A stretch of 32,000 nt of DNA from Alphaproteobacteria bacterium. GTDB lineage: Bacteria; Pseudomonadota; Alphaproteobacteria; CAAHEQ01; UBA3637. The notes below the pieces were generated by a model. The model made no database searches, was not told where the DNA came from, and was given only the letters and a program-made list of their open reading frames with translations. The DNA lies in the NCBI GenBank assembly GCA_045605805.1, contig JAZUQR010000008.1, positions 35,932-67,931 of the forward strand, given 5' to 3'. Positions 11,497 through 31,965 of the stretch are shown piece after piece (position 1 is the stretch's first letter; every line of letters starts with the position of its first letter). Position numbers and translations under genes: made by a program.

Positions 11497-11739
11497 ATGG
11501 ATTGGATTCAATTTTTACAGATCATCTGCGTACCGGCCTTTGGCTGGTTTTTTTATAAGCTCGGCGAACAGCGCAAAGAATTAAAAACTCTTGAGCGCGA
11601 CCTCAACGAGTTCAAAGTTGCGGTGGCCAAAGAGTATGCCACTCAGGTTAACATCAATCGCCTGGAGACAAAGATTGATGAATTACATCAGCTTTTATGG
11701 GAGATGCACAATGAACACACCTCGCGGCATAAGAAATAA
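11497..11739 (+). CDS. Small membrane/coiled-coil protein of the lysis cassette (holin-like)
   Basis: The ATG at 11497 follows TTAAGAAAGGAC. It has one N-terminal TM segment (ICVPAFGWFFYKL) followed by a charged helix. The ORF-track start at 11437 lies inside the J-like gene. Confidence 0.5.
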   Translation: MDWIQFLQIICVPAFGWFFYKLGEQRKELKTLERDLNEFKVAVAKEYATQVNINRLETKIDELHQLLWEMHNEHTSRHKK

Positions 11740-12118
11740 TAACCCCGGAAATATCCGGTGGGGATCGGACTGGAAAGGATTAAAAAAGGACGGAAAGCAA
11801 CAGGATCCGTCCTTTTGTGTATTTGAAACGCCTGAATATGGTATCCGGGCGTTGGCCAAATTACTCCGGAACTATCAGCGGCTTTATGGCCTGAACACGC
11901 CTTATCGGATAATCAGCCGGTACGCGCCACCGACCGAAAACGAAACAGTTTCATATATTGACAGCGTTTCGTGGCAACTGAACATCACGCCGGACACGCC
12001 GGTCGACCTTTCGGAAGATGGTGTTTTGATGGTGTTTATAAAAGCAATCATTAGACATGAGAACGGCATACAACCATACTCTAATGAAACTCTATTGAAA
12101 GGAATTCAAATGGCATGA
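11711..12118 (+). CDS. Endolysin-like protein
   Basis: An internal ATG at 11711 gives MNTPRGIRNNNPGNIRW..., an N-terminal motif I recall from small phage cell-wall hydrolase-type proteins. Located in the lysis cassette. Catalytic class unknown. Confidence 0.5.
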   Translation: MNTPRGIRNNNPGNIRWGSDWKGLKKDGKQQDPSFCVFETPEYGIRALAKLLRNYQRLYGLNTPYRIISRYAPPTENETVSYIDSVSWQLNITPDTPVDLSEDGVLMVFIKAIIRHENGIQPYSNETLLKGIQMA

Positions 12119-12523: not shown

Positions 12524-12635
12524 TTTTTGCCTTTTATATGAACCGGTGTATGCCGATTATGAGCATGATACCCCGGAAACGGTCCGTCAAATTGATAGAA
12601 ACAATGTGATTTACGATGATTTATGTACAAATTAA
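12441..12635 (+). CDS. o-spanin-like lipoprotein
   Basis: Signal peptide with a lipobox (LILSALSG-C). 64 aa. Its start lies inside the i-spanin gene in a different frame, the classic Rz/Rz1 overlapping arrangement. Confidence 0.6.
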   Translation: MLKQLRIVGTAWLILSALSGCTTNINGDFCLLYEPVYADYEHDTPETVRQIDRNNVIYDDLCTN

Positions 12636-12732
12636 AAGATTTTGTTTGACTTTTCTTGCAAAAATGGCTCGAATCATAAGCGGAGGTGTCATGAACCTCT
12701 GTAATCTTAATATTAAGAAAGGAAAATTAAAC

Positions 12733-13005
12733 ATGAATAAAACTGAATTTGTTGAAGCAGTTGCTAAAGAAGCTAAAGCCTCTAAAGCCGCCGCAAATGA
12801 ATTGGTAAACGCTGTTGTAGCTGTTGTTACAAAAGCATTGAAAAAAGGTGAATCAGTTCAAATCACTGGTTTCGGTACATTTGAAGTAGCAAAACGCGCC
12901 GCTCGTAAAGGTCGCAATCCTGCTACCGGTAAAGAAATCAAAATCCCGGCATCAAAAGCTCCTAAGTTCAAAGCCGGCGCAGTCTTGAAAAAAGCTGTAA
13001 AATAA
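12733..13005 (+). CDS. hup: HU/IHF-family DNA-binding protein
   Basis: 90 aa, MNKTEFVEAVA...GFGTFEV..R.AR.GRNP.TG..I.I....P.FK.G..LK, which matches the full-length HU signature. The ATG at 12733 follows TTAAGAAAGGAAAA, the same RBS cassette the phage genes use. Confidence 0.9.
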   Translation: MNKTEFVEAVAKEAKASKAAANELVNAVVAVVTKALKKGESVQITGFGTFEVAKRAARKGRNPATGKEIKIPASKAPKFKAGAVLKKAVK

Positions 13006-13025
13006 GCCAAATTTGTCTTAATATA

Positions 13026-13055
13026 CCTCACAGGTTCTATCCCGTGAGGTTTTTT
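13026..13055 (+). terminator. Rho-independent terminator after the HU gene
   Basis: Stem CCTCAC (13026-31) / GTGAGG (13044-49) followed by a T-run (13050-55). Confidence 0.7.
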
Positions 13056-13056
13056 G

Positions 13057-13085
13057 TTGCATTTTAATCTGCCATGGGTTATAAT
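13057..13085 (+). promoter_or_regulatory. Sigma70-type promoter for the DGR operon
   Basis: TTGCAT (13057-62), a 17-nt spacer, then a perfect TATAAT (13080-85). Predicted transcription start near 13092. Confidence 0.5.
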
Positions 13086-13091
13086 GACCGA

Positions 13092-13343
13092 GCTTGGTTA
13101 GTTATGCCCAATCAGGCTAGGATTCGATAAATCCGATTATCAGTATGGGCAGAAGGTATTTCTGTCGGCATCCGCCATGGATACGCCGAAAGATTGTGTT
13201 AGTTCATGGGTGGATGCCTGCCGAATAAGGTATCCACCCCAATAAGGCAGGACTATTTCTCATACTGATAATAGTTTATCGACATCCACCCGCCTCATCA
13301 CAGGTGGGTAAATTGTTGATATGGGGCGTATGAAGGGTGGATC
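13092..13343 (+). promoter_or_regulatory. Highly structured ~250-nt 5' leader (candidate riboswitch or attenuator) with SD-sequestering alternative helices
   Basis: Long-range stem 13136-13147 (attatcagtatg) with 13261-13272 (catactgataat). GGGTGGAT occurs at 13208-15 and at 13335-42, where it overlaps the SD of the first gene. ATCCACCC occurs at 13232-39 and 13284-91. GGCATCCGCC at 13167-76 also pairs with 13208-18. I could not match it to any known riboswitch class. Confidence 0.45.
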
Positions 13344-13784
13344 ATGGGCAAGATATGCTCGTTTTTTGGACACAGTCATTTATATGGACAATCGGACCGT
13401 ATTGCCCAACAATTAAGGCAAGTCATTATCAATTTAATCGGACAAGGTGTTGATACCTTTTACGTTGGCAATCATGGTGAGTTTGATATTTTTGCCAGCC
13501 GGGTAGCCTATGATCTGAAAAGTTTATATCCTAACATCCAAATCATTGTTGTTTTATGTTATCCAAATGAGTTGCAATACTTAAAATGTGCCTTCACGGA
13601 TTTTTTGATGCCTCCGGAAATAGAAGCGGCCCCCAAACGGGCTTGCATTGTAACTCGCAATCATTGGGTTGCTGATAATTCTGACTACATCGTCTGCTTT
13701 ATCAAATACAAAATGGGTGGAGCCTATGCGGCTATCGAATACGCCCAAAAGCACCATAAACAGATTATAGAGGTGAGAGCATGA
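13344..13784 (+). CDS. SLOG-family (DUF1273/YpsA-like) protein, probable DGR accessory gene
   Basis: 146 aa. FFGHS...G(Q)GVDTFYVGNHGEFDIFA...YPNIQIIVVL resembles the Rossmann-like YpsA/DUF1273 pattern. It is the first gene of the operon. Family assignment is from memory. Confidence 0.5.
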   Translation: MGKICSFFGHSHLYGQSDRIAQQLRQVIINLIGQGVDTFYVGNHGEFDIFASRVAYDLKSLYPNIQIIVVLCYPNELQYLKCAFTDFLMPPEIEAAPKRACIVTRNHWVADNSDYIVCFIKYKMGGAYAAIEYAQKHHKQIIEVRA

Positions 13785-13883
13785 ACCAAGCAGGCATACG
13801 TCACATTTGGGCTGAACGGTTGACTTCGCAAGGGAAGACGGATAAAATTGGCCCGGTAAAAACTCATAAAGAATGGTGTAAAA

Positions 13884-14477
13884 ATGCGTAAAGATCAAGT
13901 CAGTCGTAATCAAAGAATTCATATGCCCAGGAAGGTAGAAAACGTTTCGGGGCAATTAATGCTACCTGTGGATGTTGCTTCTGTAAAGCAAGCATTTGCA
14001 ACAGCTAATGACAAACGATTTAAATATGCTGATGCGCTGGATCAAGCAACCAAAGAAGATCCGGAATTGCATCAAATTTCAACAATTCCAAGCGATTCAA
14101 GCGAATTAATTGTTATAACGAAACTTAAAAAACTGGGGGCTTATATTCTAGCCGTGACGGTTAAATCGCCGGCCAAATTTAGACCTGTTTTTATCAATCG
14201 GATGCAAAATTACAGCTTGTCGGCTTTGGAAAATTTATTGAATGCTAATTTTATTCGGATGGATAGCCCCGAACATAAAGCCCAGCGAGAAAAGCATCAA
14301 ACGGATGCACTCATTCAGTTAAAAATGGTGGCATATGTTGCAATGCTGTCGGAAAATGCAAAGTGTATTTTGATGAGGCAGTATAAACAAATATCAATTC
14401 AGGTTGGTGAAATTATTAACCTGATTATGGCATGGAAAAAAAGTGATGATAAACAATGGCAAACAAAAAAGTTTTGA
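13884..14477 (+). CDS. avd: Avd-like accessory variability determinant (four-helix-bundle type) with an N-terminal extension
   Basis: The C-terminal ~120 aa are helical and basic, with the pattern SPAKFR...L..A......H.....A...L.....L.......QY.QI..QVGEI.NLIMAWKKS, like bAvd and 23S-IVS-type four-helix bundles. It ends 38 nt upstream of the TR, the canonical avd position. Alternative starts are at 13923 and 13959. Confidence 0.6.
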   Translation: MRKDQVSRNQRIHMPRKVENVSGQLMLPVDVASVKQAFATANDKRFKYADALDQATKEDPELHQISTIPSDSSELIVITKLKKLGAYILAVTVKSPAKFRPVFINRMQNYSLSALENLLNANFIRMDSPEHKAQREKHQTDALIQLKMVAYVAMLSENAKCILMRQYKQISIQVGEIINLIMAWKKSDDKQWQTKKF

Positions 14478-14515
14478 ATCCGAAAGGGTCAAAAGAGGGA
14501 AAGTTGATAATGCGT

Positions 14516-14635
14516 ATTGTGCCTCTTGGTCCGCGTCTTCAAATGAAAATGAAAACGTGCGTTGCGTCAACTATAAGGGCGATAAGAACTGGAATAACAC
14601 GAATAAACGTAAAATCTCGGCGCGCCCCGATTTGC
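14516..14635 (+). repeat. DGR template repeat (TR)
   Basis: 120 nt matching 16142-16261. It contains 37 adenines, including 8 AAY codons in the register of the target frame. It ends in the GC-rich element TCTCGGCGCGCCCC (14615-28). Confidence 0.95.
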
Positions 14636-14890
14636 TTTTAAGGAGAACAACAAAATGTGGTCGGCAAAGACACAGATCTCTGAAACAAGCCAGATATGTG
14701 GATTTTAGAAAAAATCCGCCCGTGCTTAAAGCAAAGGAAACTTTCTCTTTTCTAACCGCTGTCAGCTTAATGCTCAGTGCGGTGGAAGAAGTAAAAATGC
14801 AAAGTTTGCGTTTTATGGGGTATCACATATATTGACACGTCTTGTTTTAATATATTATCGGGTACCCCTTTTTTACAACAAAAGAGAACG

Positions 14891-15940
14891 ATGAAGATAG
14901 AAGAGATATTTACATTTGAAAACTTGGTTGCGGCCCACAAAGCATGTCGGCTGAGTAAGCAACATAAACGAGGAACAATCATGTTTGAAATTGAATTGGG
15001 GCGTAATGTCACCAATCTGGTCAAACAATTGACGGCTAGAACATATCGTTTAAGTCCTTACAGATCCTTTACCATTTATGATCCGAAGAAAAGATTAATT
15101 GAAGCGTTACCCTACAAAGACAGAGTGGTTTTAATGTGCTTTTGTCAGCATTCGGTAGCTCCCCGGCTAGAGAGACACCTGATTTATGACAATGCCGCTT
15201 CACGCAAAGAAAAAGGAACGCATTTTGCGGTAGAGAGATTGCATTCATTTATGCGAAAGCTGTACATCAAAAACAAAACAAATCGGATTTATTTTTTGAA
15301 ATGCGATATCAGGAAATATTTTCAAAGCATCAATCATGAGATTTTATTGGAACTGTTGGCCAAGACCGGTTTTTCGGCTGATGAGATGTGGTTTTTAAGG
15401 ATGATCATTGAATCACACGGTTCCATCGGGTTGCCTTTGGGTAATCAGACCAGCCAATGGTTTGCCTTGCTTTATTTGAACGGAATGGACAGGCTGATTA
15501 AAGAACGTCTGCGTATGTCCTGTTATGTGCGCTATATGGATGATTTTGTTATCCTAAGCGAAGATAAAGCCAAATTACAGCTGTGTAGAAAGCAAATTGA
15601 TGAATATGTCAAAGGATTAAAGCTGTCCTTAAATCAAAAGACACAAATCGGGCTGTTATCGGATGGTATTGATTTTTTGGGATTTAACCACAAATTATCG
15701 GCCACAGGTAAGATTATCAAATCTTTGCGTGGATCGGCCAAAAGCCGCCAAAGAAAATACCTGAAAACCATCCGTCATTACTATTTGAATGATGTCCTGG
15801 ATGATGAGTACCTAGACGTCCGTTTAGCCTCGTTTCGCGGGCATTTAAAGGGGACTAAGAACTGGATCCATATCAGCAACCGCTTGGCTTCCTTAAAACA
15901 CGAGAAACGCCGTACAAAAAAAATTGTTGCAGAACAATAA
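14891..15940 (+). CDS. DGR-type reverse transcriptase
   Basis: 349 aa. Has RT motifs including LPLGNQTSQ (the DGR-characteristic NQ/SQ motif) and the catalytic YMDD (VRYMDDFVIL). There is no maturase or endonuclease extension. The TR lies 255 nt upstream. Confidence 0.9.
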   Translation: MKIEEIFTFENLVAAHKACRLSKQHKRGTIMFEIELGRNVTNLVKQLTARTYRLSPYRSFTIYDPKKRLIEALPYKDRVVLMCFCQHSVAPRLERHLIYDNAASRKEKGTHFAVERLHSFMRKLYIKNKTNRIYFLKCDIRKYFQSINHEILLELLAKTGFSADEMWFLRMIIESHGSIGLPLGNQTSQWFALLYLNGMDRLIKERLRMSCYVRYMDDFVILSEDKAKLQLCRKQIDEYVKGLKLSLNQKTQIGLLSDGIDFLGFNHKLSATGKIIKSLRGSAKSRQRKYLKTIRHYYLNDVLDDEYLDVRLASFRGHLKGTKNWIHISNRLASLKHEKRRTKKIVAEQ

Positions 15941-15984
15941 ATTGTATGATATACTGGGAGTATAAGCTAAATTAGGAGGCTCAT

Positions 15985-17934
15985 ATGGACTTTACGTTTT
16001 TGAAGGAAGATCAGATATGGGGCGATGGTGCCCTAGATGTAATGAAGCGTTATGGCACGAAGGTTGCGCCAACGGATCTGACAGTCATATTGGGTGGTTA
16101 TATGACTGGTGGAGGTGATCGTACTTCTGAAGATGATCTAACTTGTGCCTCTTGGTCCGCGTCTTCAGATGGACATGGAGGCGTGCGTTGCGTCCGCTGT
16201 GAGGGCGATGAGCACTGGGGTGGCACGCATGGACGTGTGATCTCGGCGCGCCCCGCTTTGCCTCCATCGGAGGCATCTAAAATCAGCCCGAGCGAAGCGA
16301 GAGCTATCGCTGGAATCCGCGTAGCGGAATATGGGGAATACCCGCAAACGGTCGCCGATGAACGCACCAGCGAGAAATTAGAAAGATTACATGATTCAAG
16401 ATCTCTCCGTCCGACCGGAAAAAATTACACATTTGATTCAGTTGGTTTAACCGATTATGACACGTCTTTTAAGGCCACATCCTATCAGGAATATGAAATG
16501 GATGGCAAAAGGTATATCCGCGTTCCTGGACGGCCTGCTGACGACGATAGCAAACTATCTACTGGGGAACAGGTAGAGTCCGGAAAACCCTACTGGGTTG
16601 AGGTCCAACCGATAGAATGGCTGATGGATAGAAGCGGCACAATGGTCGCCAAAAAATGCTTATTCGCCGGTATTCAATTTGATACAAAGAGCTCATATGA
16701 CGGTGACTTCTCTAAAACGTCCATGAAACACTATTTGGACACTTATTTTGCCAAAGAAATGGAGCCAACCGGACGTGTGGCCGCAAGAACGGTATCAAGA
16801 GACTATGAAGAAGAGCCGGAAAGAAAAGAACCCGTTAAAAAGAAAGAACCGACAGCCAGACAGAAGAAATACGGGATCGAGGTATCTGATGAGCCTATGC
16901 CCGTCAAGGACCAAATAAACTTCTATATTCAAAACGGAATGAGCTTCATGCTCCATGGCCCGTCCGGTGTCGGTAAATCACAACGTGTGAAAGAAATTGA
17001 TCCGGATTTGACCTCAATTACGCTGTGTAACGGAATTTTGCCTGAAGATGTTATCGGTAAAACAATCTATCCAAACGGCGTGGGAGCCGATGGGGCCTCC
17101 GGTGGTGTTTGGGTGCCGCCTAAGTGGTACACGGATTTGTGCAGAAAATGCGAAACAGAACCGGACAAACAGCACGTCTTATTTATCGATGAAGTGACCA
17201 ATGCGCGTGAAACAACACAAAGTTTGATCTATCACGTAGCGTTGGAAAAATCAATTGCCCAGGGCGTTGGCAAACTGCCTAATAATGCTGTGGTCGTATT
17301 GGCCGGTAACAGCAAGGAAGAATCAGGAGCCGCTTATAACATGCCGGCCCCGTTGTTCAGACGTTTAAGCCATATTTACTTGGACTTGAATATTCAGGAT
17401 TGGTTGGAATGGGGCTCGGAACACAGCAAGAGCCATCCGGAAGATCCGGATCGCTTAAACATCCATCCATTAGTCGCCAGTTTTGTGGCAACCTACGGAC
17501 GGCAAGTGTTCTATTCCGAGTATGATGAAGAAAACCCCGGCAAGTTTGCACTTGACCCACGAAAATGGGAAAAAGTATCAGATAAAATCTACGCTAATAA
17601 GGGTATGATGCGCCGTGAGATTTTGGAAGCTGATATCGGGCCTGAGTTGGCGGCCAGTTTGTTGTCTTATGCTAAAAATCCGCCGCTATCCCTGGAAGAA
17701 GTGATTGAGGGCGAATATACCCGCGAGGATATTCCTACGGGACAGGATGCCCGTTTGGCGTTGGCGTTGAGTTTGCGTCATGCAACACCGAAACAAGTCG
17801 GGAAAGTACGTCAATTTGTTGAAACACAGTTAGGCGCAGAAAATCGTGCGATTTTTGACTCTGTTTGGGTGGGCAAGGATGATACACGCGCCATGCAGAT
17901 TGCCACTTTACATAACTTAAAGGGAGGAAGATAA
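15985..17934 (+). CDS. DGR target protein: N-terminal variable ligand-binding domain fused to a MoxR/AAA_5-like ATPase
   Basis: Strong RBS (AGGAGG). The VR occupies codons 53-92. A charged linker spans about aa 272-296. Walker A is GPSGVGKS (16957-16980), Walker B is VLFIDEV, sensor-1 is LAGN, followed by PLFRRL. The order and spacing of these motifs resemble MoxR/AAA_5 ATPases. Confidence 0.8.
   Translation: MDFTFLKEDQIWGDGALDVMKRYGTKVAPTDLTVILGGYMTGGGDRTSEDDLTCASWSASSDGHGGVRCVRCEGDEHWGGTHGRVISARPALPPSEASKISPSEARAIAGIRVAEYGEYPQTVADERTSEKLERLHDSRSLRPTGKNYTFDSVGLTDYDTSFKATSYQEYEMDGKRYIRVPGRPADDDSKLSTGEQVESGKPYWVEVQPIEWLMDRSGTMVAKKCLFAGIQFDTKSSYDGDFSKTSMKHYLDTYFAKEMEPTGRVAARTVSRDYEEEPERKEPVKKKEPTARQKKYGIEVSDEPMPVKDQINFYIQNGMSFMLHGPSGVGKSQRVKEIDPDLTSITLCNGILPEDVIGKTIYPNGVGADGASGGVWVPPKWYTDLCRKCETEPDKQHVLFIDEVTNARETTQSLIYHVALEKSIAQGVGKLPNNAVVVLAGNSKEESGAAYNMPAPLFRRLSHIYLDLNIQDWLEWGSEHSKSHPEDPDRLNIHPLVASFVATYGRQVFYSEYDEENPGKFALDPRKWEKVSDKIYANKGMMRREILEADIGPELAASLLSYAKNPPLSLEEVIEGEYTREDIPTGQDARLALALSLRHATPKQVGKVRQFVETQLGAENRAIFDSVWVGKDDTRAMQIATLHNLKGGR
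16142..16261 (+). repeat. DGR variable repeat (VR)
   Basis: Differs from the TR at 24 positions, all TR adenines (17 A->G, 6 A->C, 1 A->T). The other 83 positions are identical. It lies in frame inside the 649-aa target gene. Confidence 0.95.
16260..16274 (+). promoter_or_regulatory. Hairpin immediately 3' of the VR (candidate homing/target-recognition element)
   Basis: GCCTCC-ATC-GGAGGC, a perfect 6-bp stem with a 3-nt loop. It starts where TR/VR homology ends and is absent from the TR side. Confidence 0.6.
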
Positions 17935-17935
17935 A

Positions 17936-18400
17936 ATGTCATTAAAAGAAATACTCGAAAAAAGTCGGAAAAAACGCAAGAATGGCTTAGTCATTGGGCC
18001 TGATATAGGATGGCTTGGTCCGAAACCCGCCCGAACAAAAGCCGAAAAGATTAATCAAATCAAAACGGAATTTATTGATGATAGAGCTTTGTTGATTGTC
18101 GGAGCTAAAGCATCCGATTTTGCAGAATATCCGAAGATAGAGGCTGATATCTCAGTTCAACGTTTGATTCAATATATGGATACGTTTGAAAAAACGGAAG
18201 ATCATAAAGGTTTCTTGGTCATTGATGGGTTAGACAATATACCTGAATCTGAACAGGAAAAGTTTGTCCCCTTGTTAAAAGATCGGCAGATTTTATCCAG
18301 TAAGCTGCCAAATGAAGTTCAAATTTTGGTTCCTGTGAAAAAAATTGAAGACATTTCAAAAAGGATAAAATCTCTGATATTTCCTCTGAAGGTGGTATAA
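17936..18400 (+). CDS. Hypothetical protein, operon partner of the ATPase and VWA genes
   Basis: 154 aa. It starts 2 nt after the ATPase stop and ends in a TAATG overlap with the VWA gene. Apart from a Walker-B-like FLVIDGLD, I found no motif. Confidence 0.5.
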   Translation: MSLKEILEKSRKKRKNGLVIGPDIGWLGPKPARTKAEKINQIKTEFIDDRALLIVGAKASDFAEYPKIEADISVQRLIQYMDTFEKTEDHKGFLVIDGLDNIPESEQEKFVPLLKDRQILSSKLPNEVQILVPVKKIEDISKRIKSLIFPLKVV

Positions 18401-20247
18401 TGATCAAAGATGTTTTAAAACAACAAGAAGAAATTCAATATATCAAGGAACAGGTTTTAGCCAAGTTTCCCTTACTTGGTGTGACGATGATGCCTTTGTC
18501 GGTTGTTCCTGATGATAGAATTGGGACAGCGGCCACGGATGGACATAAAATTATCTATTCTCCAAAGTTTTTTAACACCTTATCGGACGAACAAAAACAA
18601 TTTGTCTTTGCGCATGAAGTGATGCATGTCGCTTTTAACCATATTTTGCGCAGTAAGGGTCGTAATCAAAGATTGTGGAATATCGCAACCGATTCTGTTA
18701 TCAACCAAATCTTGAAAAATGAAAAATTGCCATTAGCGGAAGGTGGCGTTGATATTGCAGAAGCTGTCAATCATTCGGCCGAGGAAATGTACGAAAAACT
18801 TTTGAAAAAGAAAGAACAGCGCGATCAGGAAAAACAGCAAAATCAAGAGCAAGATCAACAGCAACAACAATCACAATCCGGTGGGACGGACCAGCCTCAG
18901 GATCAGGATGCACAAAATCAGCCTGAACAGGAACAACCTCAGGATCAAGACGGACAAAATCAATCCGGACAAGACCAGCCTCAGGATCAAGACGGGCAAA
19001 AGGGACAAGAACAATCCGATCAACAATCAGACGGTTCAGAAAATCAAGATGAACAAAACAAAAATTCATCAGAAGGCTCGGAAGGATCCGAACAACAGAA
19101 AGATCAATCTCAAGATGGTGATTCAAACTCTGAACAAAACAGTTCTTCCGGTCAGGGAGACGAAAATCAATCTGATTCAAATTCCGAACAATCAAGCGAC
19201 AATCAACAAGGATCCTCTAAACCTCAAAAAGGTGGTCAACGTTCGCAATCCGGTTCTTCCTCTCAATCAGAAGACACCGACTGGGATGACAGCAATATCG
19301 ATTGGGACAATGAAGATGAACAAGTAGGCCACGATACACATGATATTTGGAAAGAAGCAGTTGAGCAAGCAGAACGTGAAGAACAACGAAAACAGGAAGC
19401 ATCCAAAAAGAAAAGTTTATGGGATAAACTAAAAGAGAACATGGGGCAAAAAGAAGTTAAAGAGGATCAGCAAGGCGAACCTCAAGAAAAAGAAGCTCCT
19501 GTACCGCAAGATGAAAACATGGATGCGTATGAAAAAGGCTTCTTGGCAGAAAATCAAGAAAAACGTCATGAGATGGCCGAACAGGTGCGCGAACAATTAA
19601 ACAGGATAAAAGGAAGCCTCCGTCAATCAAATGATCATACCACAGTCGGGGATGTTGGGGAAACTCAAACGCCGGTGGTTGATTGGAAAAAAATGCTTAA
19701 AAAATCTTTTGATGAAGAGCGTGATCGTTGGTCCTATCGTCGTTCCGGTTCTGAAAACGACTATATGGCTCGGGTAGAAGAATTGGAAGATGAAGGCCGT
19801 CCGGATACTGAGGTTATGTTGGATGTCAGCGGTTCTGTAAATATCCGCTTGTTACGTGAATTTTTAAGACAACTTAAACCGTTACTTAAATCCTCTAAAT
19901 TAAAGGTCGGTTGCTTTGATGAGTTTGTTTATGATTTTAAAGAAATAAAGACAAAAGAAGATATTGATCATTTTCAAATTACGGCAACATCTCAATGGAC
20001 TGAAAACTGGGATGCGGCTGTCCGGGCATTTTCTAAGAAAAAAGAAGTGAATAAAATTATTTTTACAGACGGATATCCATGCCCAGGAACAATGCCTAAA
20101 GAAGATTTAAAGGGTAAGAATGTTATTTGGATAGTTTATGGAAATAAAGATTTTAATCCATGCTGTGGTAAAGTCATCCAGGTTTCTGAACGACAACTTC
20201 AGTCGTATATTCAGACGGCCGCTCCACTTTCTAGAGGTGGAAGATAA
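18400..20247 (+). CDS. Putative HExxH metallopeptidase / VWA-domain protein (DUF2201-like) with a long disordered linker
   Basis: N-terminal HEVMHVAFNH motif (18613-). About 170 aa of Q/D/E/S/G-rich low complexity. The C-terminal domain has a MIDAS-like DVSGS (19822-19836). AAA_5/MoxR ATPases are commonly partnered with VWA proteins. Confidence 0.7.
   Translation: MIKDVLKQQEEIQYIKEQVLAKFPLLGVTMMPLSVVPDDRIGTAATDGHKIIYSPKFFNTLSDEQKQFVFAHEVMHVAFNHILRSKGRNQRLWNIATDSVINQILKNEKLPLAEGGVDIAEAVNHSAEEMYEKLLKKKEQRDQEKQQNQEQDQQQQQSQSGGTDQPQDQDAQNQPEQEQPQDQDGQNQSGQDQPQDQDGQKGQEQSDQQSDGSENQDEQNKNSSEGSEGSEQQKDQSQDGDSNSEQNSSSGQGDENQSDSNSEQSSDNQQGSSKPQKGGQRSQSGSSSQSEDTDWDDSNIDWDNEDEQVGHDTHDIWKEAVEQAEREEQRKQEASKKKSLWDKLKENMGQKEVKEDQQGEPQEKEAPVPQDENMDAYEKGFLAENQEKRHEMAEQVREQLNRIKGSLRQSNDHTTVGDVGETQTPVVDWKKMLKKSFDEERDRWSYRRSGSENDYMARVEELEDEGRPDTEVMLDVSGSVNIRLLREFLRQLKPLLKSSKLKVGCFDEFVYDFKEIKTKEDIDHFQITATSQWTENWDAAVRAFSKKKEVNKIIFTDGYPCPGTMPKEDLKGKNVIWIVYGNKDFNPCCGKVIQVSERQLQSYIQTAAPLSRGGR
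18817..19330 (+). repeat. Low-complexity Gln/Asp/Glu/Ser-rich coding tract with degenerate QPQDQDGQNQ repeats
   Basis: Repeated cagcctcaggatca(a/g)ga(c/t)g(g/c)acaaaa units. The tract creates spurious ORFs at 18881-19327 (+) and 18767-19195 (-). Confidence 0.8.
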
Positions 20248-20289: not shown

Positions 20290-22872
20290 TTAATATAAAT
20301 TAGCCTCAAAAATTTGATAAAGGTCAAATTCTATACCGTCAACGCCTCTGATGAGGTCTATTTCATCTTCGGCGGCGACATCAATTCGGGCCTGATCTAA
20401 AAACAAGCCTTCTTCTTTTCGTTTAAGCTCTTTTTCAGCGACATTCAGCTGTTTTTGAATTCTTAATTCCGTGAGCCGGTCTGAAGCGGAGGATATTGTC
20501 TCACGAATTTTTTTAACCTCTTGCCTTGCTTCTGAAATGTTTTGCTCTAGGACAGATTTTTGGCGGCTGGCTTTTATTTTAATTAAATCAACATCCGTAT
20601 CAAACTTTTTGGTATAATCATTTACATAACGTTCCTTAAGGTCGCGCTGGATGCGTGTATCTAACAAATCTCGCGATGAACCGCCAGTCGTTTTTAGCCA
20701 ATACGGATTCCTCTTTTCTTCAGCTATAAATTCACTAACCGGTTGATTGATAATTTTTTGGCATTCCTCATCAGTCATGAGCCGTCCATCAGGTGTCGTA
20801 CCAACCAAAATGTCATACTCTGATAAATACTGCCGGCGGCGATTACGTAAGACGATGTTATAGAACTTTATATTGCATTTTTCTGTTGGCTCAACGGTTT
20901 TAATGTCCGCTTTGTCAGAGCATGATATTTCTTGTAAAATACCACGAACAAGCACGGATGTTAAAGTGATGCGCCCTGCGACCGGCTTAAAATCTTTACT
21001 CATTCCATAAGTCCTGCGACCGGTGTATGGCACATTTCTTGTGCCGGTGTAATAGTAAAACATGTGCGGCAATTCTTCATCGTCCGGTAAAGTCAGCGTT
21101 TGATTGAAGTCATCGATCACATATTCCGGATGCTTTGTCGCAAAATAAAACTTCACAACTTCCCATAAATCTTTATTCAAGAACTCCGCTTGTTCCTCTA
21201 TGTATTTCGGCGAAACGGACACTTTCTCGGCAATATCTTTGGTAAAAGTGGTAAAGAGAGAACTTTCAGCCGCTGAAACAATGCGCTCATTCGGTTCGCG
21301 GTTTACTTCCAAGTTTGTTTCCATATCTGCGCGTATATCACTAAGCGTGCGGCGTTTTTGCAAAACATCTTCCAGTTTAACATCAAAATTACCGACAATA
21401 TCGTCCGACATACCAAAAATGCCTTCAAATTGCAGGGTACGCTTGTTTATCAGCTCCAAAATACGGACATCCGAGATATTTTCTTTGCTTAAAAGATTGA
21501 TAACTAAAACATCGGATTGCTGGCCTTGTCGGTGGCAACGACAGATACGCTGTTCCATTTCCACGGCGTTATAAAGTAAATCATAGTTAACCACAACTGG
21601 ACAATATTCAATATCCAAGCCTTTGGCCATAGCATCACTACAAATTAAAATTTGCAAATCTTTTTCTGCCCGAAAACGTGGCAGAGCATCATTTTCTGTA
21701 TGCTTGATGACATTATATCCGGCGGTTTTAAGCAAATTTGCCAAAACTGGCACGGTGGCAAGATTATCCACGAACACAATCGCTTTTTGTGTTTCTTTAC
21801 GCAATTTTAAGTGTGCAAATGTCGTTTTAATAGCTTTTAGAAATTCTTCCATTTTGGCGGTTTGCGTAATTTTTGCCGCCATATCGCGCATTGATTCCAA
21901 AATAACACGTTCATCGCCTTGTGTTCGCTCAATAGGTGCTTCCAACATTGTGGCAAATGCTTGTGGTGATGAGGCCAAAATGTGGTAAAACATCAAAGTC
22001 AGTTGATAATTATCCATTTGCGGATAAGCCTGCTTTTCAGCTAAATTTAAGTATTTTTCGGTTAAATCATAAATTTTCTTTTCATCATCTTTTGGTACGT
22101 AGTTCAAAACAATCGGTAAGCGACGTGTAAAGTTTACATACTGGCTCGCTTGGCTTTTAAGGGTACGAAAAGCGAATTGTGATACCCAATTTGATAGTTC
22201 TGGATAGTTTTCGGGCTTTCTGAAATACCGGCGATAAAAACTGTCAGGATCCGGCAGAACGCTTTCATCAATAAAATGTATCAATCCGTAAATATCCATG
22301 ATACTCATTGTGATCGGCGTTGGCGTTAAAAGCAGTTTGAAAGCATCGCCGACAGCACCCTTAATGGTTGCAACTGATTTATTGTCCGGCTTAAAAAGAA
22401 AATCAGCCTCATCAAACACGGCCAAATCCCAACGAATGCTTTTGACTTTTTCTGCCTCACGGATAACATCATCGTATGTGACAAGGCAAATACCTTTACT
22501 ATCGGCAGTATATTCGGCCCATTTGATAACCGGCAAGGTGAACTCTTCATCAAGTTTTTGTTGCCATTGTGCCATAAGGTTTTGGGGTAAAACAACCAAT
22601 ATATGTTCTTTTCCCTCGTACCAACGTTGAACTACTACAAGCAAAGCCTCATAAGTTTTACCGAGTGAGCCTTCATCACATAAAATGCAACCTTTAATCA
22701 ACCTAGATCGCAGGGCAAAACGGGCCGCGGCTATTTGATAAGGTAATACTTTAATTTTTGAAGAAGCATAAACCGCCAGTAAATTATCGTCATCGCGAAA
22801 ACTGGCCAATCGTCTGGCTTCCACCATAGCGGCAAATTCGGATACAAAACGATACGGCTTAGTCTCTTCCAT
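20290..22872 (-). CDS. SNF2-family helicase-like ATPase with a C-terminal coiled-coil extension
   Basis: Motif I is LCDEGSLGKT and motif II is VFDEADFL. The helicase-C block is ...DAMAKGLDIEYCPVVVNYDLLYNAVEMEQRICRCHRQGQ. The start lies 3 nt after the res stop. Confidence 0.8.
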   Translation of the reverse strand: MEETKPYRFVSEFAAMVEARRLASFRDDDNLLAVYASSKIKVLPYQIAAARFALRSRLIKGCILCDEGSLGKTYEALLVVVQRWYEGKEHILVVLPQNLMAQWQQKLDEEFTLPVIKWAEYTADSKGICLVTYDDVIREAEKVKSIRWDLAVFDEADFLFKPDNKSVATIKGAVGDAFKLLLTPTPITMSIMDIYGLIHFIDESVLPDPDSFYRRYFRKPENYPELSNWVSQFAFRTLKSQASQYVNFTRRLPIVLNYVPKDDEKKIYDLTEKYLNLAEKQAYPQMDNYQLTLMFYHILASSPQAFATMLEAPIERTQGDERVILESMRDMAAKITQTAKMEEFLKAIKTTFAHLKLRKETQKAIVFVDNLATVPVLANLLKTAGYNVIKHTENDALPRFRAEKDLQILICSDAMAKGLDIEYCPVVVNYDLLYNAVEMEQRICRCHRQGQQSDVLVINLLSKENISDVRILELINKRTLQFEGIFGMSDDIVGNFDVKLEDVLQKRRTLSDIRADMETNLEVNREPNERIVSAAESSLFTTFTKDIAEKVSVSPKYIEEQAEFLNKDLWEVVKFYFATKHPEYVIDDFNQTLTLPDDEELPHMFYYYTGTRNVPYTGRRTYGMSKDFKPVAGRITLTSVLVRGILQEISCSDKADIKTVEPTEKCNIKFYNIVLRNRRRQYLSEYDILVGTTPDGRLMTDEECQKIINQPVSEFIAEEKRNPYWLKTTGGSSRDLLDTRIQRDLKERYVNDYTKKFDTDVDLIKIKASRQKSVLEQNISEARQEVKKIRETISSASDRLTELRIQKQLNVAEKELKRKEEGLFLDQARIDVAAEDEIDLIRGVDGIEFDLYQIFEANLY

Positions 22873-22875
22873 AAT

Positions 22876-25800
22876 TTACACCGTTTTCTTAAATTCCTGC
22901 CAATTTCTGACCGGCTGTTCGGAGTAGATAACATTATCAAGAGCTTTGAAGTGCTGTGCGCCGCAATGAATCTTTTGTTGTTCTTCCGGTCGCAGGCCAT
23001 AGAACGAATCAGTTCCTTTGGTTTCAAGCACGAAATAAAGTTTCTGTTCGCCATTTTTCTCTAAATATACGGCCCAGTCCGGATTATAGGTTCCAATAGG
23101 TGTATCAATCTTAAACCGGCTTGGAATTTTAAAGAACATTTTAACGTCAGGATCCTCATCCAAAGCCACGGCAAACGGCTTTTCAACCGTGCTACTGTCA
23201 TAAATAACATAGTCATAAACGCTGTTTTTAACCGCGACAGCATTACGATCGAGGTTAGCAATCAATTCTTCACTCGAGAAAATCTCTTGCACGGCATATT
23301 CTTCGCCGGCCAATTTAATATACTTAATTCCATCAATGGCCAATGCATGGCGATTGCGCTGGATGATCTCCAAAACCTTTTCGTAAAAGTCTTGTGGGTT
23401 CTTCAAAAAGTCTCCGGCCCGGCTGCTTTCTTGAATGATTTTATTCACGGTCGAACGTTTCAGCAATGTTTTGGTAGAGATTAAACGCAAAATATCCGGC
23501 AGAACATCATAGCTCTTTTCCAGGTTTTGGGTAAACATCGCACCGGCTTGGGCGGTTACGCCTGACTTTTGAATATCAACCGAGGCTGTCTGACTGAGTA
23601 AACGGGCCGAAGCAATCTCCGGCATCTTACGAATATCCTTGATACTGTCGGCGATCAGTTTATCTAAATCAAACTGGACCCGATAAGTGGTCTTTTGCTT
23701 AATTTTATTCCACAACTCCATAAATTCCGGTGATAATAGCGCACGTTTATTGAGTTTTACCGTTACATCCTTGGAAGCATCGCGGATGTTGAGCTTATTA
23801 TCAGCCTTGTTCATGGACTGCAAAATTGCACGTTGCGCGGCTTTTGACCAACGCTCACTTAAATTGAGTGTACCGGCCGCAAGCTGTGCCTTCATGGTGT
23901 CTTTAATCTTGTTCTTGCTGTCAATAACCTTTTTATCTTTCAGCTCATCCATAATCGCGGCCGCTTCCTCATACGAGAAGGTCTTTTTCTCAACAACAGT
24001 TTCTTTATATGTTGTATTAGCAAGCGCGGCAACCGACACCGGCTTTGAAGTTTTGATCATATCTTGAACATGTGTTTTTACAGGTTCAGGCATGGGGATA
24101 TTTTCGATTTTAATTTCTTCCGGCTTAACTTCCGGTTTAATGTAGCCACCATCATCAATTAAGCCATATTTTTGTAAATCTTCAACAATAGCGGTGGCCT
24201 CGCTTTCGCTGACTCTACGTTCAACTTCTACTTCTTCATCGTAAGAATAGCCGACAAGCATATCCAACTCGAAAACGCCAAATTTAACACCGGTTTCATC
24301 TTCAATTTCTTTCTGTAATTTATCGGCAAACTCGGCAAAACTTTCGTTGGCGATAACGTGCAAAACATTGATGTTCTTATCCTCAATCCGTTCTCCGTCC
24401 TGATTAACGCAAAGTCTTAAGCCACGACCGATTTTTTGACGGCAGGTAAACAGCGATTTTTGCTCGATCAGCGTGCAAACTTGGAAGACATTCGGATTAT
24501 CCCAACCTTCTTTTAAGGCAGAGTGCGAGAAAATAAAGCGGAGCGGACATTCAAACGACAACAGCCACTCTTTATCTTTCATGATGGTATTGTAGGTGTC
24601 GTCATCAGCCTGCGTATCGCCTTTGGTATCCTTATATTTACCTTTTTTATCTTGGGAGAAGTAACCGTTGTGTGCTTTGTTTACGTCTGTATCGAACTTG
24701 GTTTTTAGCTCAGCGTAACGTGGTTTATTGATCAGTTCGTTATAGCATTCTTCGAACATTTTGGCATAAATACCTTTGCCGCCATCCTCAGTGCGGTATT
24801 TTTTAACCTCATCAATAAAGAACAGGGACAACACCTTAATTCCCATATCAAAATAGCGTAATTCCTTATCTAAATGGGTTTTAATGGTCTGATAAATTTG
24901 CGCACGTTTCAAAACTTTTTCATCAACGCTACCGATGGCTTTACCCAGGGCAACATATTCCGAGTTTGCAAATTCCACACCCTCAAGGCCTGATGTACAA
25001 TCAATCCCTGAAACAACATAGCCTTCATAAATTTTGCGATGGCCGGATTTGATAAACAGATCATCGTCCGGTTTAACCGTTATAACTTTACGCGTAATAT
25101 GAGCGTTGTCGTCTTCCACATCAATTTCCAGTTTGGCCGAAAAGCCGTTGGCGTTTGAAACGTTCTTTAAGGCGATATAGGGTTTGTTTGAATCATTGAT
25201 AACTGAATTTGAAATAACGCAAATCTGTTTTACTAATCCCAGTTGATACGCATCAACTGGTGTTAAACGATAGACAAGATTCTGCTTTTCGCGGTGGGTA
25301 GCGGAATAACGCAACACGCACAGCGGATTAAGCATCGCGATGGCTTCCTTTGCCTTTGGCGTATTATCAACACTTTGCGGTTCGTCAATAATCACAACCG
25401 GATTTGTGTCCTGAATATAGCGCATAGCGGTTTCGCCGTTCAGTTTATCTTGCTCTTGATTGATAATGTTTTCGGCCTTTTTGAAAGCATCGATGTTGAT
25501 GATCATGATTTCAATGTTGCTGGAAGTTGCAAAGGCTCGCACATCAGAGAGCTTGGCCGAATTATAAATAAAGTAGCGGTACGGCACACCGTCATATTGA
25601 TTTTTGAAATACTCTTCCGTAACCTGAAACGACTTGTTTACACCTTCGCGAATTGCTACACTCGGTACAACAATGATGAACTTTGTAAAACCGTAGCGGT
25701 GGTTAAGCTCCAAAATTGTTTTTGTATAAACGAAAGTTTTGCCGGTTCCGGTTTCCATTTCAATTGAAAGCGGCACCGCCTTTATGCCGTCAATGTTGGT

Positions 25801-26034
25801 TTGCGGCAGAGAATGAGCCTTTTGGATTGCATGAAGATTGTTGTTTATTGTCTCTTCATCCAACAGCAACTTGTTACCGAACCCAAATTCATTTTGCAGG
25901 AAAGAAGCCTGCGCGGAGTTATCGGCGATTGAAAAAGTCATGTTGGCTTTTTCTTGGCCCTTGAATAACTCAACCGCCGCATTCGTGGCATCAGTTTGAA
26001 ATTCTTGATTCTTAAACTTTAGTTTCATGCTCAT
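22876..26034 (-). CDS. res: Type III restriction enzyme, Res subunit
   Basis: 1052 aa. METGTGKT (Walker A), IIDEPQ (DEAH-like), helicase-C motifs, and a C-terminal PD-(D/E)xK nuclease signature (YNPDW...VLETKG). Confidence 0.85.
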   Translation of the reverse strand: MSMKLKFKNQEFQTDATNAAVELFKGQEKANMTFSIADNSAQASFLQNEFGFGNKLLLDEETINNNLHAIQKAHSLPQTNIDGIKAVPLSIEMETGTGKTFVYTKTILELNHRYGFTKFIIVVPSVAIREGVNKSFQVTEEYFKNQYDGVPYRYFIYNSAKLSDVRAFATSSNIEIMIINIDAFKKAENIINQEQDKLNGETAMRYIQDTNPVVIIDEPQSVDNTPKAKEAIAMLNPLCVLRYSATHREKQNLVYRLTPVDAYQLGLVKQICVISNSVINDSNKPYIALKNVSNANGFSAKLEIDVEDDNAHITRKVITVKPDDDLFIKSGHRKIYEGYVVSGIDCTSGLEGVEFANSEYVALGKAIGSVDEKVLKRAQIYQTIKTHLDKELRYFDMGIKVLSLFFIDEVKKYRTEDGGKGIYAKMFEECYNELINKPRYAELKTKFDTDVNKAHNGYFSQDKKGKYKDTKGDTQADDDTYNTIMKDKEWLLSFECPLRFIFSHSALKEGWDNPNVFQVCTLIEQKSLFTCRQKIGRGLRLCVNQDGERIEDKNINVLHVIANESFAEFADKLQKEIEDETGVKFGVFELDMLVGYSYDEEVEVERRVSESEATAIVEDLQKYGLIDDGGYIKPEVKPEEIKIENIPMPEPVKTHVQDMIKTSKPVSVAALANTTYKETVVEKKTFSYEEAAAIMDELKDKKVIDSKNKIKDTMKAQLAAGTLNLSERWSKAAQRAILQSMNKADNKLNIRDASKDVTVKLNKRALLSPEFMELWNKIKQKTTYRVQFDLDKLIADSIKDIRKMPEIASARLLSQTASVDIQKSGVTAQAGAMFTQNLEKSYDVLPDILRLISTKTLLKRSTVNKIIQESSRAGDFLKNPQDFYEKVLEIIQRNRHALAIDGIKYIKLAGEEYAVQEIFSSEELIANLDRNAVAVKNSVYDYVIYDSSTVEKPFAVALDEDPDVKMFFKIPSRFKIDTPIGTYNPDWAVYLEKNGEQKLYFVLETKGTDSFYGLRPEEQQKIHCGAQHFKALDNVIYSEQPVRNWQEFKKTV

Positions 26035-26726: not shown

Positions 26727-26735
26727 CGTCCACCT

Positions 26736-29323: not shown

Positions 29324-29400
29324 TGGTCGGAGCGGCGGGATTTGAACCCACGACCACTTGCCCCCCAGACAAGTGCGCTACCAGGCTGCGCTACGCTCCG
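29324..29400 (-). tRNA. tRNA-Pro (anticodon GGG), CCA encoded
   Basis: The reverse complement reads CGGAGCGTAGCGCAGCCTGGTAGCGCACTTGTCTGGGGGGCAAGTGGTCGTGGGTTCAAATCCCGCCGCTCCGACCA. It folds into a cloverleaf with a 7-bp acceptor stem, GGTTCAAAT in the T-loop, and anticodon loop CU-GGG-GG. Confidence 0.9.

Positions 29401-30909: not shown

Positions 30910-31965
<1,056 letters not shown>

Follow-up and report, generated by a model that had tools for sequence, protein, structure and literature searches.

An apparently active prophage DGR with its variable region in the N-terminal module of a MoxR-class ATPase fusion protein

Within the 32,000-nt stretch of DNA analysed here (the window), which comes from an uncultured alphaproteobacterium of the gut or rumen, a siphovirus-like prophage carries in its accessory region a locus that, on its sequence, we regard as a complete and genuine DGR cassette. 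The DGR is real and the kind of system is known, and its target, a MoxR ATPase fusion, is unusual. The explanation that best fits the evidence as a whole, to which we assign a single joint probability of about 0.9, is an active prophage DGR that diversifies a module on a cytoplasmic MoxR ATPase, probably for use in conflict. The elements of the cassette and the first part of its target gene are as follows.

13884–14477, + strand: Avd-like accessory gene, 197 aa
14517–14635, + strand: TR, 119 nt with 36 adenines, between avd and RT
14616–14635, + strand: IMH*-like 3’ end of TR, CTCGGCGCGCCCCG-A-TTTGC
14636–14890, + strand: TR-RT spacer, non-coding by position
14891–15940, + strand: DGR reverse transcriptase (RT), 349 aa, with motifs LGNQTSQ and YMDD
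15985–17934, + strand: target gene, 649 aa, one continuous ORF encoding an N-terminal variable module and a MoxR-class AAA+ ATPase
15985–16770, + strand: N-terminal module (aa 1–262, ~270 aa), a compact alpha/beta domain that carries the VR
16143–16261, + strand: VR, codons 53–92 of the target gene
16242–16261, + strand: IMH-like 3’ end of VR, CTCGGCGCGCCCCG-C-TTTGC

An earlier note, made from the sequence alone, had aligned 14516–14635 to 16142–16261 by hand and read the pair as the signature of a DGR. Machine alignment of the two copies was gapless at a constant offset of 1626 and reproduced the 24 differences, all of which fall on adenines of the upstream copy (24 of its 37; 17 A>G, 6 A>C and 1 A>T), with identity at 83/83 non-A positions and an abrupt end of homology at both edges, beyond which the flanks are identical only at random level. 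The probability that all 24 mismatches would fall on the 37 adenines by chance is 3.3e-16 (hypergeometric). The note had also counted 23 differences if the first base is left out, and this proved the better delimitation: a repeat search likewise returned 14517–14635 (119 nt, 23 differences), and base 14516/16142 lies outside the repeat, as the bases preceding it differ too and read gta/aac in every related locus. In the target reading frame, 23 of the 24 differences sit in codon position 1 or 2. The last of them, A14630 in TR against C16256 in VR, is a fixed TR/VR difference rather than a product of diversification, because the VR has C at this position in all six loci examined (6/6). It belongs to a GC-rich 3’ element, conserved in six loci, in which a 14-mer is followed by A in TR and always by C in VR; by analogy with the BPP-1 paradigm, this element may play an IMH/IMH*-type role. 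The rewritable sites thus comprise 35 adenines in 19 codons (18 of them able to change the amino acid), spanning target residues 61–86 and allowing ~1e18 possible proteins, with four AAR codons able to turn into stop codons. No second VR was found in the 32-kb window, and an ORF that overlaps TR (14443–14835), for which there was no family match, is probably spurious.

The genes around TR support the DGR reading, with every element that the earlier note had named recovered and in the canonical Avd-TR-RT order, followed by the target gene. The Avd-like ORF ends 39 nt before TR, in keeping with its reported place directly upstream of the A-rich copy, and its product matches phrog_3206 (‘Avd protein of DGR’; 6.7e-11), with a four-helix-bundle region at aa 75–187 behind an N-terminal extension of ~70 aa. 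It also covers the whole of the Pfam bAvd (1.1e-5) and NCBIfam DivGenRetAVD (5.4e-5) profiles, at scores below the curated cut-offs, and the gene is conserved at 97–100% in four related loci (L001, L002, L004 and L005) and at 56% in the more divergent L008. The RT lies between the two copies and carries both of the motifs attributed to it; it matches phrog_1423 at 2.5e-93, is 34.5% identical to BPP-1 Brt over 91% of the length of the latter (E = 1e-41), and has its closest relative in the phage collection in the RT of gut phage nd12 (40.7% identity). By family match, motifs and pairwise identity, we therefore assign it to the DGR group.

Comparison of related metagenome-assembled genomes (MAGs) and metagenome proteins indicates that the DGR is apparently active. 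TR is identical in the window, L001 and L004, and carries one G>A change in L002 and L005. Between the window and L001, TR shows 0/120 differences and VR 21/120 (17.5%), 18 of these at TR-A sites, as compared with 1.2% across the remaining 3.9 kb; between the window and L002, the VR differences fall at TR-A sites in 27 of 27 cases. Across four VRs, 34/36 TR adenine positions were polymorphic vs 4/83 non-A positions, non-A differences in the VRs of sister loci being few (0–4 per VR). The same contrast was seen at the protein level: among 39 homologues (identity of at least ~80%), mean entropy was 2.68 bits at A-templated codons vs 0.37 elsewhere (p = 6e-15, Mann-Whitney), and A-templated codons accounted for 14 of the 16 most variable residues in the 649-aa target. 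The check on related genomes that had been proposed, polymorphism at A-templated sites as against an invariant VR, thus came out with VR changes almost all A-templated and flanks nearly identical, and the suggestion of recent or current activity was indirectly supported by this VR-specific, A-site polymorphism among near-identical loci.

Two other accounts of the repeat pair fare poorly against these data. One is an ordinary duplication or recombination repeat beside an RT of another class (retron, group II intron or defence RT), the A-bias being coincidental. The RT does have sub-threshold matches to group II intron, retron and DRT models, but these lie far below the cut-offs whereas its match to the DGR RT family is strong; mismatches confined to adenines are expected by coincidence with a probability of only ~3e-16, and six loci that differ in TR sequence (L001, L002, L004, L005, L008 and L025) each show the A-only pattern independently. 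We consider this account refuted by the mismatch pattern and the RT family match, and negligible in probability. The other is a fossil DGR, in which the TR/VR pair records past mutagenesis and homing has ended. Such decay is visible among the relatives, as RT has been lost or persists only as remnants in L003, L006, L007, L009 and L010, and the VR of L004 contains an indel and stop codons. In the window, however, RT, Avd and TR are intact and every non-A position is preserved, and among loci that share TR exactly and the flanks at 98.8%, VR divergence amounts to 17–22% of sites, nearly all of them TR-A. Because VR polymorphism is almost confined to A-templated positions, 34 of 36 adenine sites varying among only four genomes, while the flanks are nearly identical, we rate the fossil interpretation as very unlikely.

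The VR lies at the 5’ end of the target gene rather than at its 3’ end, and full-length homologues of the target number in the dozens (633–725 aa). This departs from the pattern in a large DGR survey, where VRs occur at the target C-terminus in a C-type-lectin fold and targets serve mainly virus-cell or cell-cell attachment (PMC8144416). The module that carries the VR was modelled with AF2 at a pLDDT of 89.6 and a pTM of 0.84. Foldseek searches of this model against PDB and BFVD returned nothing below E 0.05, with TM scores of ~0.1 and no C-type lectin match; this null result weighs little against a C-type-lectin fold, because sequential alignment handles a permuted fold poorly. The module belongs to a family of 2,475 representatives at 50% identity, whose members are fused to ankyrin, MORN, LRR and AAA domains and have no recognisable solved structure. 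Profile comparison (hhalign) aligned the VR segment with the VR-bearing end of DUF6273 (positions 114–210; E = 8.1e-5, probability 61%), the two sharing the pattern W-x-x-S ... V-x-x-V ... G ... VRPAL. The DUF6273-like segments stand in swapped order, with the VR part first (aa 29–98) and the part resembling the DUF6273 N-terminus behind it (aa 178–265), which suggests a circular permutation of a DUF6273-like module; alignments for the second half of this proposed permutation were weak (E = 0.016–0.019). Pfam DUF6273 was matched by 3 of 49 family members (best 2.1e-7) and, in a permissive Pfam search of the module, by 1 of 26 (E = 0.16), the window protein itself reaching no Pfam DUF6273 match; phmmer with the Toutatis DUF6273 proteins found no match in the family, and tblastn of the module found none in the INPHARED phage collection. 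From this weak similarity, the module appears to be a remote relative of the C-lec-like DUF6273, and we infer a DUF6273-related ligand-binding module.

Behind this module, the target continues into an ATPase, and two further genes follow.

16879–17919, + strand: MoxR-class AAA+ ATPase domain and helical C-terminal region (aa ~299–645 of the target), with Walker A GPSGVGKS and Walker B LFIDEV
17936–18400, + strand: small conserved ORF, 154 aa, between the ATPase and vWA genes
18400–20247, + strand: DUF2201 protein, with an N-terminal HExxH metallopeptidase, a long Q/D/S-rich linker and a C-terminal vWA-like domain with DVSGS

The ATPase domain matches phrog_1297 at 1.8e-37, and its best Foldseek matches are CbbQ2 (6l1q) and the NorQ-NorD complex (9qh6), at E ~2e-6 and probability 1.00. 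A PDB sequence profile search with the target gave only weak AAA+ matches (2r44 and 5c3c), and matches of the domain to Pfam AAA_5 and AAA_3 were sub-threshold. Tblastn with the ATPase half retrieved phage ‘MoxR ATPase’ genes from 435 phage records, many of them of lytic phages. No Ig-like domain was matched in the target by Pfam, its C-terminal 350 aa being the MoxR AAA+ ATPase. Because the N-terminus shows no signal-like hydrophobic stretch by eye and the enzyme needs ATP, we take the target to be cytoplasmic. The small ORF has a counterpart at the same position in all loci (116–156 aa), with only weak STAND-like family matches and a marginal PADLOC match to Avs1b (5.5e-4). The DUF2201 protein (Pfam DUF2201_N 2.6e-29, DUF2201 5.3e-7; phrog_1314 1e-49) offers, one gene downstream of the ATPase, a partner with a MIDAS-type motif in its vWA-like domain, and is present in every locus. 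PADLOC reported no significant match for the target, the small ORF or the DUF2201 protein.

The full set of Avd, TR, RT, target, small ORF and DUF2201 with A-only mismatches occurs in L001, L002, L004, L005, L008 (target 58% identical) and L025 (52%). In roughly half of the related loci, the target, the small ORF and DUF2201 are retained with no RT nearby, from which it follows that the three-gene machine works without a DGR. An HU gene and a SLOG-like ORF upstream were considered as DGR accessory genes and dropped, since neither occurs in L008 or L025, two divergent loci that carry the DGR. A near-identity DNA search with 13800–18400 found no match in the INPHARED collection, which therefore does not contain the phage; IMG/VR contigs searched with the target as query yielded no relative, and an Rfam scan found only a tRNA. 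On its far side, the cassette, which itself follows tail and lysis genes, is succeeded by a DrmD-like/type III R-M cluster and a tRNA-Pro gene; defence genes thus lie directly downstream of it.

The cassette resembles the DGR of BPP-1 (avd-TR-brt, target mtd) in its adenine-specific TR to VR differences, its gene order, the motif-4 and YMDD signatures of its RT, and a GC-rich element at the 3’ ends of TR and VR that differs between the two (IMH/IMH* in BPP-1). In BPP-1, however, mtd lies upstream of avd and has its VR at the very 3’ end, whereas here the target lies downstream of RT; and Mtd is a trimeric tail-fibre tip protein, as compared with an AAA+ ATPase fusion. DUF6273/C-lec targets with a 5’-proximal VR downstream of RT have been described (PMC10743442; bioRxiv 10.1101/2024.10.15.618418), and the VR segment of the present target aligns with the VR-bearing end of DUF6273, the domain of the tentaclin/DUF6273 cassettes of gut phages (nd4, nd12 and FP_Toutatis; PMC10743442, PMC11792537, bioRxiv 10.1101/2024.10.15.618418). 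The VR of tentaclins closes a canonical N-terminal DUF6273 domain at aa ~160–260; Ig-like domains, with a virion anchor, come after it, and the host is a Firmicute. Here, the VR part comes first, a MoxR ATPase follows the module, and the host is an alphaproteobacterium.

MoxR-vWA conflict systems with an associated DGR have also been described (Kaur et al. 2020, PMC7159879; Dore et al. 2024, PMC10907252), and comparative genomics of cyanobacteria and purple sulfur bacteria led to the proposal that DGRs diversify the intracellular sensors of such systems. The present cassette shares with these ternary systems the coupling of a DGR to a MoxR AAA+/vWA pair, peptidase included, and a hypervariable lectin-like domain as the presumed specificity element. 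In the ternary systems, the VR belongs to a C-terminal FGE/CLec domain, on either the vWA component or a separate protein and never on the ATPase, and the loci are chromosomal, with a cellular-clade DGR RT and cyanobacterial or Chromatiales hosts; here, the locus is prophage-borne, the VR is on the MoxR protein and a single protein (DUF2201) combines the peptidase with the vWA domain. The VMAP third component that the ternary systems possess was not detected here, the 154-aa ORF having no significant family match. The partner has the same metallopeptidase-then-vWA architecture as that of the jumbo phage group 2.2 pair (PMC7824862), and the nearest structural counterparts of the AAA+ domain are CbbQ and NorQ, from the CbbQ-CbbO and NorQ-NorD pairs; unlike the target, none of the jumbo phage MoxR, NorQ or CbbQ proteins has an N-terminal variable module or a DGR link. 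The MoxR gene of PVP-SE1 has no vWA neighbour. In the searchable literature, we found no description of a DGR-diversified MoxR-type ATPase.

Following the BPP-1 paradigm, the avd-TR-RT unit would be transcribed, with the spacer presumed to form the 3’ part of the DGR RNA; RT and Avd would copy TR RNA into cDNA with misincorporation opposite adenines, and the mutated cDNA would replace the VR, the direction being set by the GC-rich 3’ element with its one fixed base difference. The ATPase may then form a hexamer displaying six hypervariable binding modules and work with the vWA-metallopeptidase as NorQ does with NorD, so that the DGR would change which intracellular protein is bound, remodelled or cleaved. 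From the encoded domains, we infer that the target is not a virion receptor-binding protein, and use in phage-phage or phage-host conflict would be its most probable function, in keeping with the defence genes downstream and with the precedent of DGR-associated MoxR-vWA systems. In a more specific form, which we put forward tentatively, the hexamer and its partner would act on proteins of competing phages or of host defence as a prophage-borne, DGR-programmable recognition system, an anticipatory, antibody-like repertoire on a circularly permuted C-lec/DUF6273 scaffold.

Alternatively, the DGR may be real but the target complex may serve the phage life cycle as an assembly chaperone or in adsorption or host take-over, the variable module binding a changing host or virion component. 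The abundance of ATPase-half homologues among phages, many lytic, is consistent with this, as is the position of the cassette right behind tail and lysis genes; moreover, the jumbo-phage MoxR/metallopeptidase-vWA pair has been proposed as a virion-assembly chaperone, a MoxR-vWA pair is needed for tail assembly in Acidianus two-tailed virus (both PMC7824862), and a receptor-binding role is presumed for the DUF6273 targets in other gut phages (PMC10743442). However, in L024 the three genes are chromosomal and not phage-borne, and in L025 the DGR lies outside any recognisable tail module. Phage assembly substrates are not expected to require 1e18 specificities, the target lacks a virion-anchoring domain, and an ATP-dependent motor is unlikely to work outside the cell. 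We therefore regard a life-cycle role as possible rather than likely.

The locus is a compact, prophage-carried cassette of five genes (Avd, RT, ATPase fusion, small ORF and vWA-peptidase) in which the variable domain is fused to a motor protein, and the natural variants with and without a DGR make the idea of intracellular DGR sensors testable. The known DGR scaffolds are extended by a VR-bearing module from a very large family; if the permuted C-lec/DUF6273 scaffold is correct, a DGR-tolerant scaffold can undergo rearrangement and be joined N-terminally to an enzyme.

RNA folding of the TR-RT region, whose spacer is partly conserved in L008, gave a structure no better than shuffles (z = −1.28). 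A possible hairpin directly 3’ of the VR was seen in both the MFE and centroid structures.

16260–16274, + strand: possible hairpin, GCCTCC-ATC-GGAGGC

Its DNA fold is likewise no better than shuffles (z = −0.66). The hairpin is identical in close loci and absent from L008, where TR/VR differences are still A-only, and it may arise incidentally from the conserved sequence that encodes LPPSEAS.

Three comparisons of the repeat pair, by MAFFT (14496-14655 against 16122-16281), by a repeat finder (family D1, spacing 1626) and by direct count, reproduced exactly the 24 differences in 120 nt (17 A>G, 6 A>C, 1 A>T) that the earlier note had counted by hand. As claimed there, every difference falls on one of the 37 adenines of the upstream copy (24/24; p = 3.3e-16 by chance, given 37 adenines among 120 positions), all non-A positions are identical (83/83), and the homology ends abruptly, with identity at the random level immediately beyond the repeat. 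Comparison of six loci places the first base (14516/16142) outside the repeat, giving corrected limits of 14517-14635 for the template repeat (TR) and 16143-16261 for the variable repeat (VR). The last difference, A14630/C16256, is a C in every VR examined in these six loci and is a fixed TR/VR difference within a GC-rich 3' element (CTCGGCGCGCCCCG-[A/C]-TTTGC); element and A/C difference together would correspond to the IMH/IMH* arrangement of BPP-1. No second VR was found within the 32-kb window. The repeats belong to a diversity-generating retroelement (DGR) cassette ordered, on the plus strand, as follows.

Genes and repeats of the DGR cassette and the small ORF that follows it
13884-14477, plus strand: Avd-like gene (phrog 'Avd protein of DGR', 6.7e-11; Pfam and NCBIfam Avd matches full-length, sub-threshold)
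14517-14635, plus strand: TR, with A-only differences from the VR
255 nt, plus strand: non-coding spacer between TR and RT
14891-15940, plus strand: reverse transcriptase (RT; phrog_1423, 2.5e-93; LGNQTSQ and YMDD motifs)
15985-17934, plus strand: target ORF of 649 aa, containing the VR
17936-18400: conserved small ORF of 154 aa between the ATPase (target) and vWA genes, family not clear

The profile matches bear out the earlier assignment of a DGR-type RT between the repeat copies and of an Avd-like gene upstream of the TR. The RT shares 40.7% identity with that of gut phage nd12, 34.5% with BPP-1 Brt over 91% of its length (both by tblastn) and 35% with that of FP_Toutatis, and the element is a clear member of the known DGR class. 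The region just upstream of avd (12616-13784) encodes an N-terminally extended DNA-binding protein of the HU family and contains a small ORF whose YpsA/SLOG match is sub-threshold; both are kept in close loci and absent from divergent DGR-bearing loci, and are therefore probably not DGR components.

Of the 24 differences, 23 alter the first or second base of a codon in the target frame. The TR carries eight AAY codons and four AAR codons, the latter stop-capable by mutation, and the theoretical repertoire is ~1e18 proteins. Homologues of the target occur by the hundreds in metagenomes, and we aligned 39 of them (at least ~80% identity) and computed the Shannon entropy at each position. At the 20 codons whose first or second base is templated by a TR adenine (a set that includes codons 53 and 91, otherwise set aside as outside the repeat and as the fixed difference), mean entropy was 2.68 bits, compared with 0.52 bits for the remaining VR codons and 0.37 bits for the protein outside the VR (p = 6e-15, Mann-Whitney); 14 of the 16 most variable positions among the 649 are A-templated.

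The same pattern was seen at the nucleotide level among related loci from other genomes and metagenomes (L-numbers below). L001 has a TR identical to that of the window and is 98.8% identical across the 3.9 kb that run from avd through the target, yet its VR differs at 21/120 sites, of which 18 are TR-A sites; every VR difference of L002 (27/27) is at a TR-A site. Among four VRs, 34/36 TR-adenine positions are polymorphic, as compared with 4/83 non-A positions. Variation concentrated at A-templated sites between near-identical flanks is not what the earlier note expected of a fossil element; it agrees with the recent or current activity proposed there, and at the level of sequence it is the pattern that mutagenic homing would leave if it was recent and had happened repeatedly. 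In-frame stop codons were present in the VRs of two MAG consensus sequences, L004 (6159-6280) and L008 (6164-6290), as mutagenesis of stop-capable TR codons should produce in the absence of selection. The stops of L004, whose VR also has a 1-nt indel, derive from AAR codons; in L008 the stop position is already a TAA codon in the TR, and mutagenesis can turn it only to sense. The DGR may be turning its target on and off; alternatively, each MAG consensus may be a mixture of alleles.

The VR occupies codons 53-92 of the target and lies within an N-terminal module (residues 1-262) that AF2 models confidently as a compact alpha/beta domain (pLDDT 89.6, pTM 0.84), joined by a disordered linker (263-288) to the ATPase. 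A Foldseek search of this model against PDB and BFVD returned no match; of 1.84 billion cluster representatives, its sequence profile found 2,475 (851 of them below 1e-30). Most of these relatives are stand-alone proteins of 270-450 aa, and some have the module in tandem or fused to ankyrin, MORN, DUF4116, LRR or AAA domains. Modules without the ATPase were also seen in L010, L013, L015, L016 and L012 (4311-5327), the last encoding a stand-alone 338-aa protein (86% identity over 264 aa) beside a gene for a LysM/M23-type peptidase; neither RT nor TR was found near these five within the locus extents examined.

Three of 49 family members reach Pfam DUF6273 (best 2.1e-7), a C-lec-like domain previously recognised among the DGR targets of gut phages, for example in Faecalibacterium prophages (PMC11792537) and in Toutatisvirus (bioRxiv 10.1101/2024.10.15.618418). 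With a deeper alignment, hhalign matched target residues 29-98, VR included, to DUF6273 positions 114-210, its VR-bearing C-terminal part (E 8.1e-5, probability 61%), and residues 178-265 to positions 15-87 (E 0.016). An HMM of DUF6273 relatives repeated this swapped mapping in many family members. We accordingly interpret the module as a relative of DUF6273 in circularly permuted form; these profile matches give the kinship reasonable support, and are only suggestive of the permutation.

The C-terminal half of the target is a MoxR-class AAA+ ATPase (Walker A GPSGVGKS, Walker B LFIDEV; phrog_1297, 1.8e-37), with 25-30% identity to what 435 phage records list as 'MoxR ATPase' genes. A PDB sequence search gave weak matches to 2r44 and CbbQ, and Foldseek of the full-length AF2 model (pLDDT 78.6) ranked CbbQ2 (6l1q) and NorQ-NorD complexes (9qh6 and others) at the top, with probability 1.00. 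An ORF occupies the position of the 154-aa ORF in every locus; here it matches STAND NTPase models weakly (NPHP3_N 3e-3, Avs1b 5.5e-4) and has a Walker-B-like stretch, 'LVIDGLD', without a Walker A. It is followed by a DUF2201 protein in which a long acidic Q-rich linker separates an HEVMH metallopeptidase domain from a vWA-like domain with DVSGS; target ATPase and DUF2201 correspond to the 'MoxR plus metallopeptidase-vWA' pair noted in jumbo phages (PMC7824862). The linker (18820-19400) is very long, low-complexity and Q/D/S/E-rich, with three 42-nt tandem repeats (18888-19000), and varies in length among loci (proteins of 476-615 aa).

The full arrangement (Avd, TR, RT, target, small ORF, DUF2201) with A-only TR/VR mismatches recurs in L001, L002, L004 and L005, whose targets are 95-97% identical, and in L008 (58%) and L025 (52%). 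Its persistence down to 52% identity indicates that the association of DGR and ATPase fusion is old and maintained. The ATPase fusion, small ORF and DUF2201 are also kept together with no RT within 6-7 kb in L003, L007, L009, L022 and L023, and L006 has only an RT remnant; the DGR is thus an optional add-on to a machine that works alone, as is also reported for Toutatisvirus targets. The three-gene unit of L025 (4838-10754, with Avd-like gene, TR and RT) adjoins UvrD/SMC-like genes; that of L024 (7001-10820), without a DGR, lies among housekeeping genes and is apparently chromosomal.

It is the target, and not the retroelement, that departs from textbook DGRs. Surveyed DGRs have their VRs at C-termini, in C-lec folds (PMC8144416), whereas here the VR lies at codons 53-92 of 649; tentaclins, the DUF6273-bearing targets of gut phages, share the 5'-proximal VR but have Ig-like tails in place of the MoxR ATPase; and in MoxR-vWA-linked DGRs the vWA component or a separate CLec protein is diversified and, unlike here, never the ATPase. 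No DGR-diversified fusion to a MoxR/AAA+ ATPase was described in the full-text literature searched; the architecture differs from all found there, within a DGR of known class.

The cassette lies between the genes below.

Genes flanking the cassette
11591-12118: lysin
20290-28601, minus strand: defence-type gene cluster that follows the DGR cassette directly
29324-29400, minus strand: tRNA-Pro(GGG) gene
30913-31965: host mreB, after tRNA-Pro

At its start the window runs through a tail module of siphovirus type, with genes for a tape measure, for minor tail proteins and, as far as 11483, for a J-like protein; the lysin is followed by the HU gene, the SLOG-like ORF and the cassette. The defence cluster comprises a DrmD-like SNF2 helicase (PADLOC 1.3e-76), a type III restriction subunit, a 231-aa ORF (26031-26726) and a type III methyltransferase; in L001, L004 and L005, too, the cassette is followed by the SNF2 gene, which hence appears to be part of the same element. 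With tail and lysis genes before it, and defence genes, tRNA-Pro and mreB after it, the cassette belongs to the accessory end of a prophage. The tRNA-Pro gene is a plausible attachment site and right boundary of this prophage; the window stops short of the left end. The related loci come from MAGs of uncultured Alphaproteobacteria from ruminant and other gut samples.

The sequence relationships, the A-site-specific population diversity, the domain composition and the gene order are shown by these data; the mechanism is proposed by analogy with BPP-1: the RT, with Avd, would reverse-transcribe TR RNA, misincorporating at adenines, and the cDNA would replace the VR, the GC-rich 3' element setting the direction of transfer. 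MoxR ATPases are hexamers that act on or through vWA partners (NorQ-NorD, CbbQ-CbbO). By family resemblance, each subunit would carry one hypervariable binding module, and the vWA partner would contribute the metallopeptidase. No signal-like hydrophobic stretch was seen by eye at the target N-terminus, and this, together with the need for ATP, makes the ligand most probably intracellular. Because defence genes lie next to the cassette, and because MoxR-vWA systems linked to DGRs are already on record (PMC7159879, PMC10907252), we favour a role in phage-phage or phage-host conflict (probability roughly 0.35-0.4); service in the phage life cycle, for example as an assembly chaperone or in host take-over, is only slightly less probable.

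Imperfect tandem repeats also occur at 4789-5149 and 6777-6915 (periods of 84/231 nt and 69 nt), in the tail-region ORFs 4440-5546 and 6589-8097; their mismatches have no A bias, and they are probably coiled-coil or fibre repeats.
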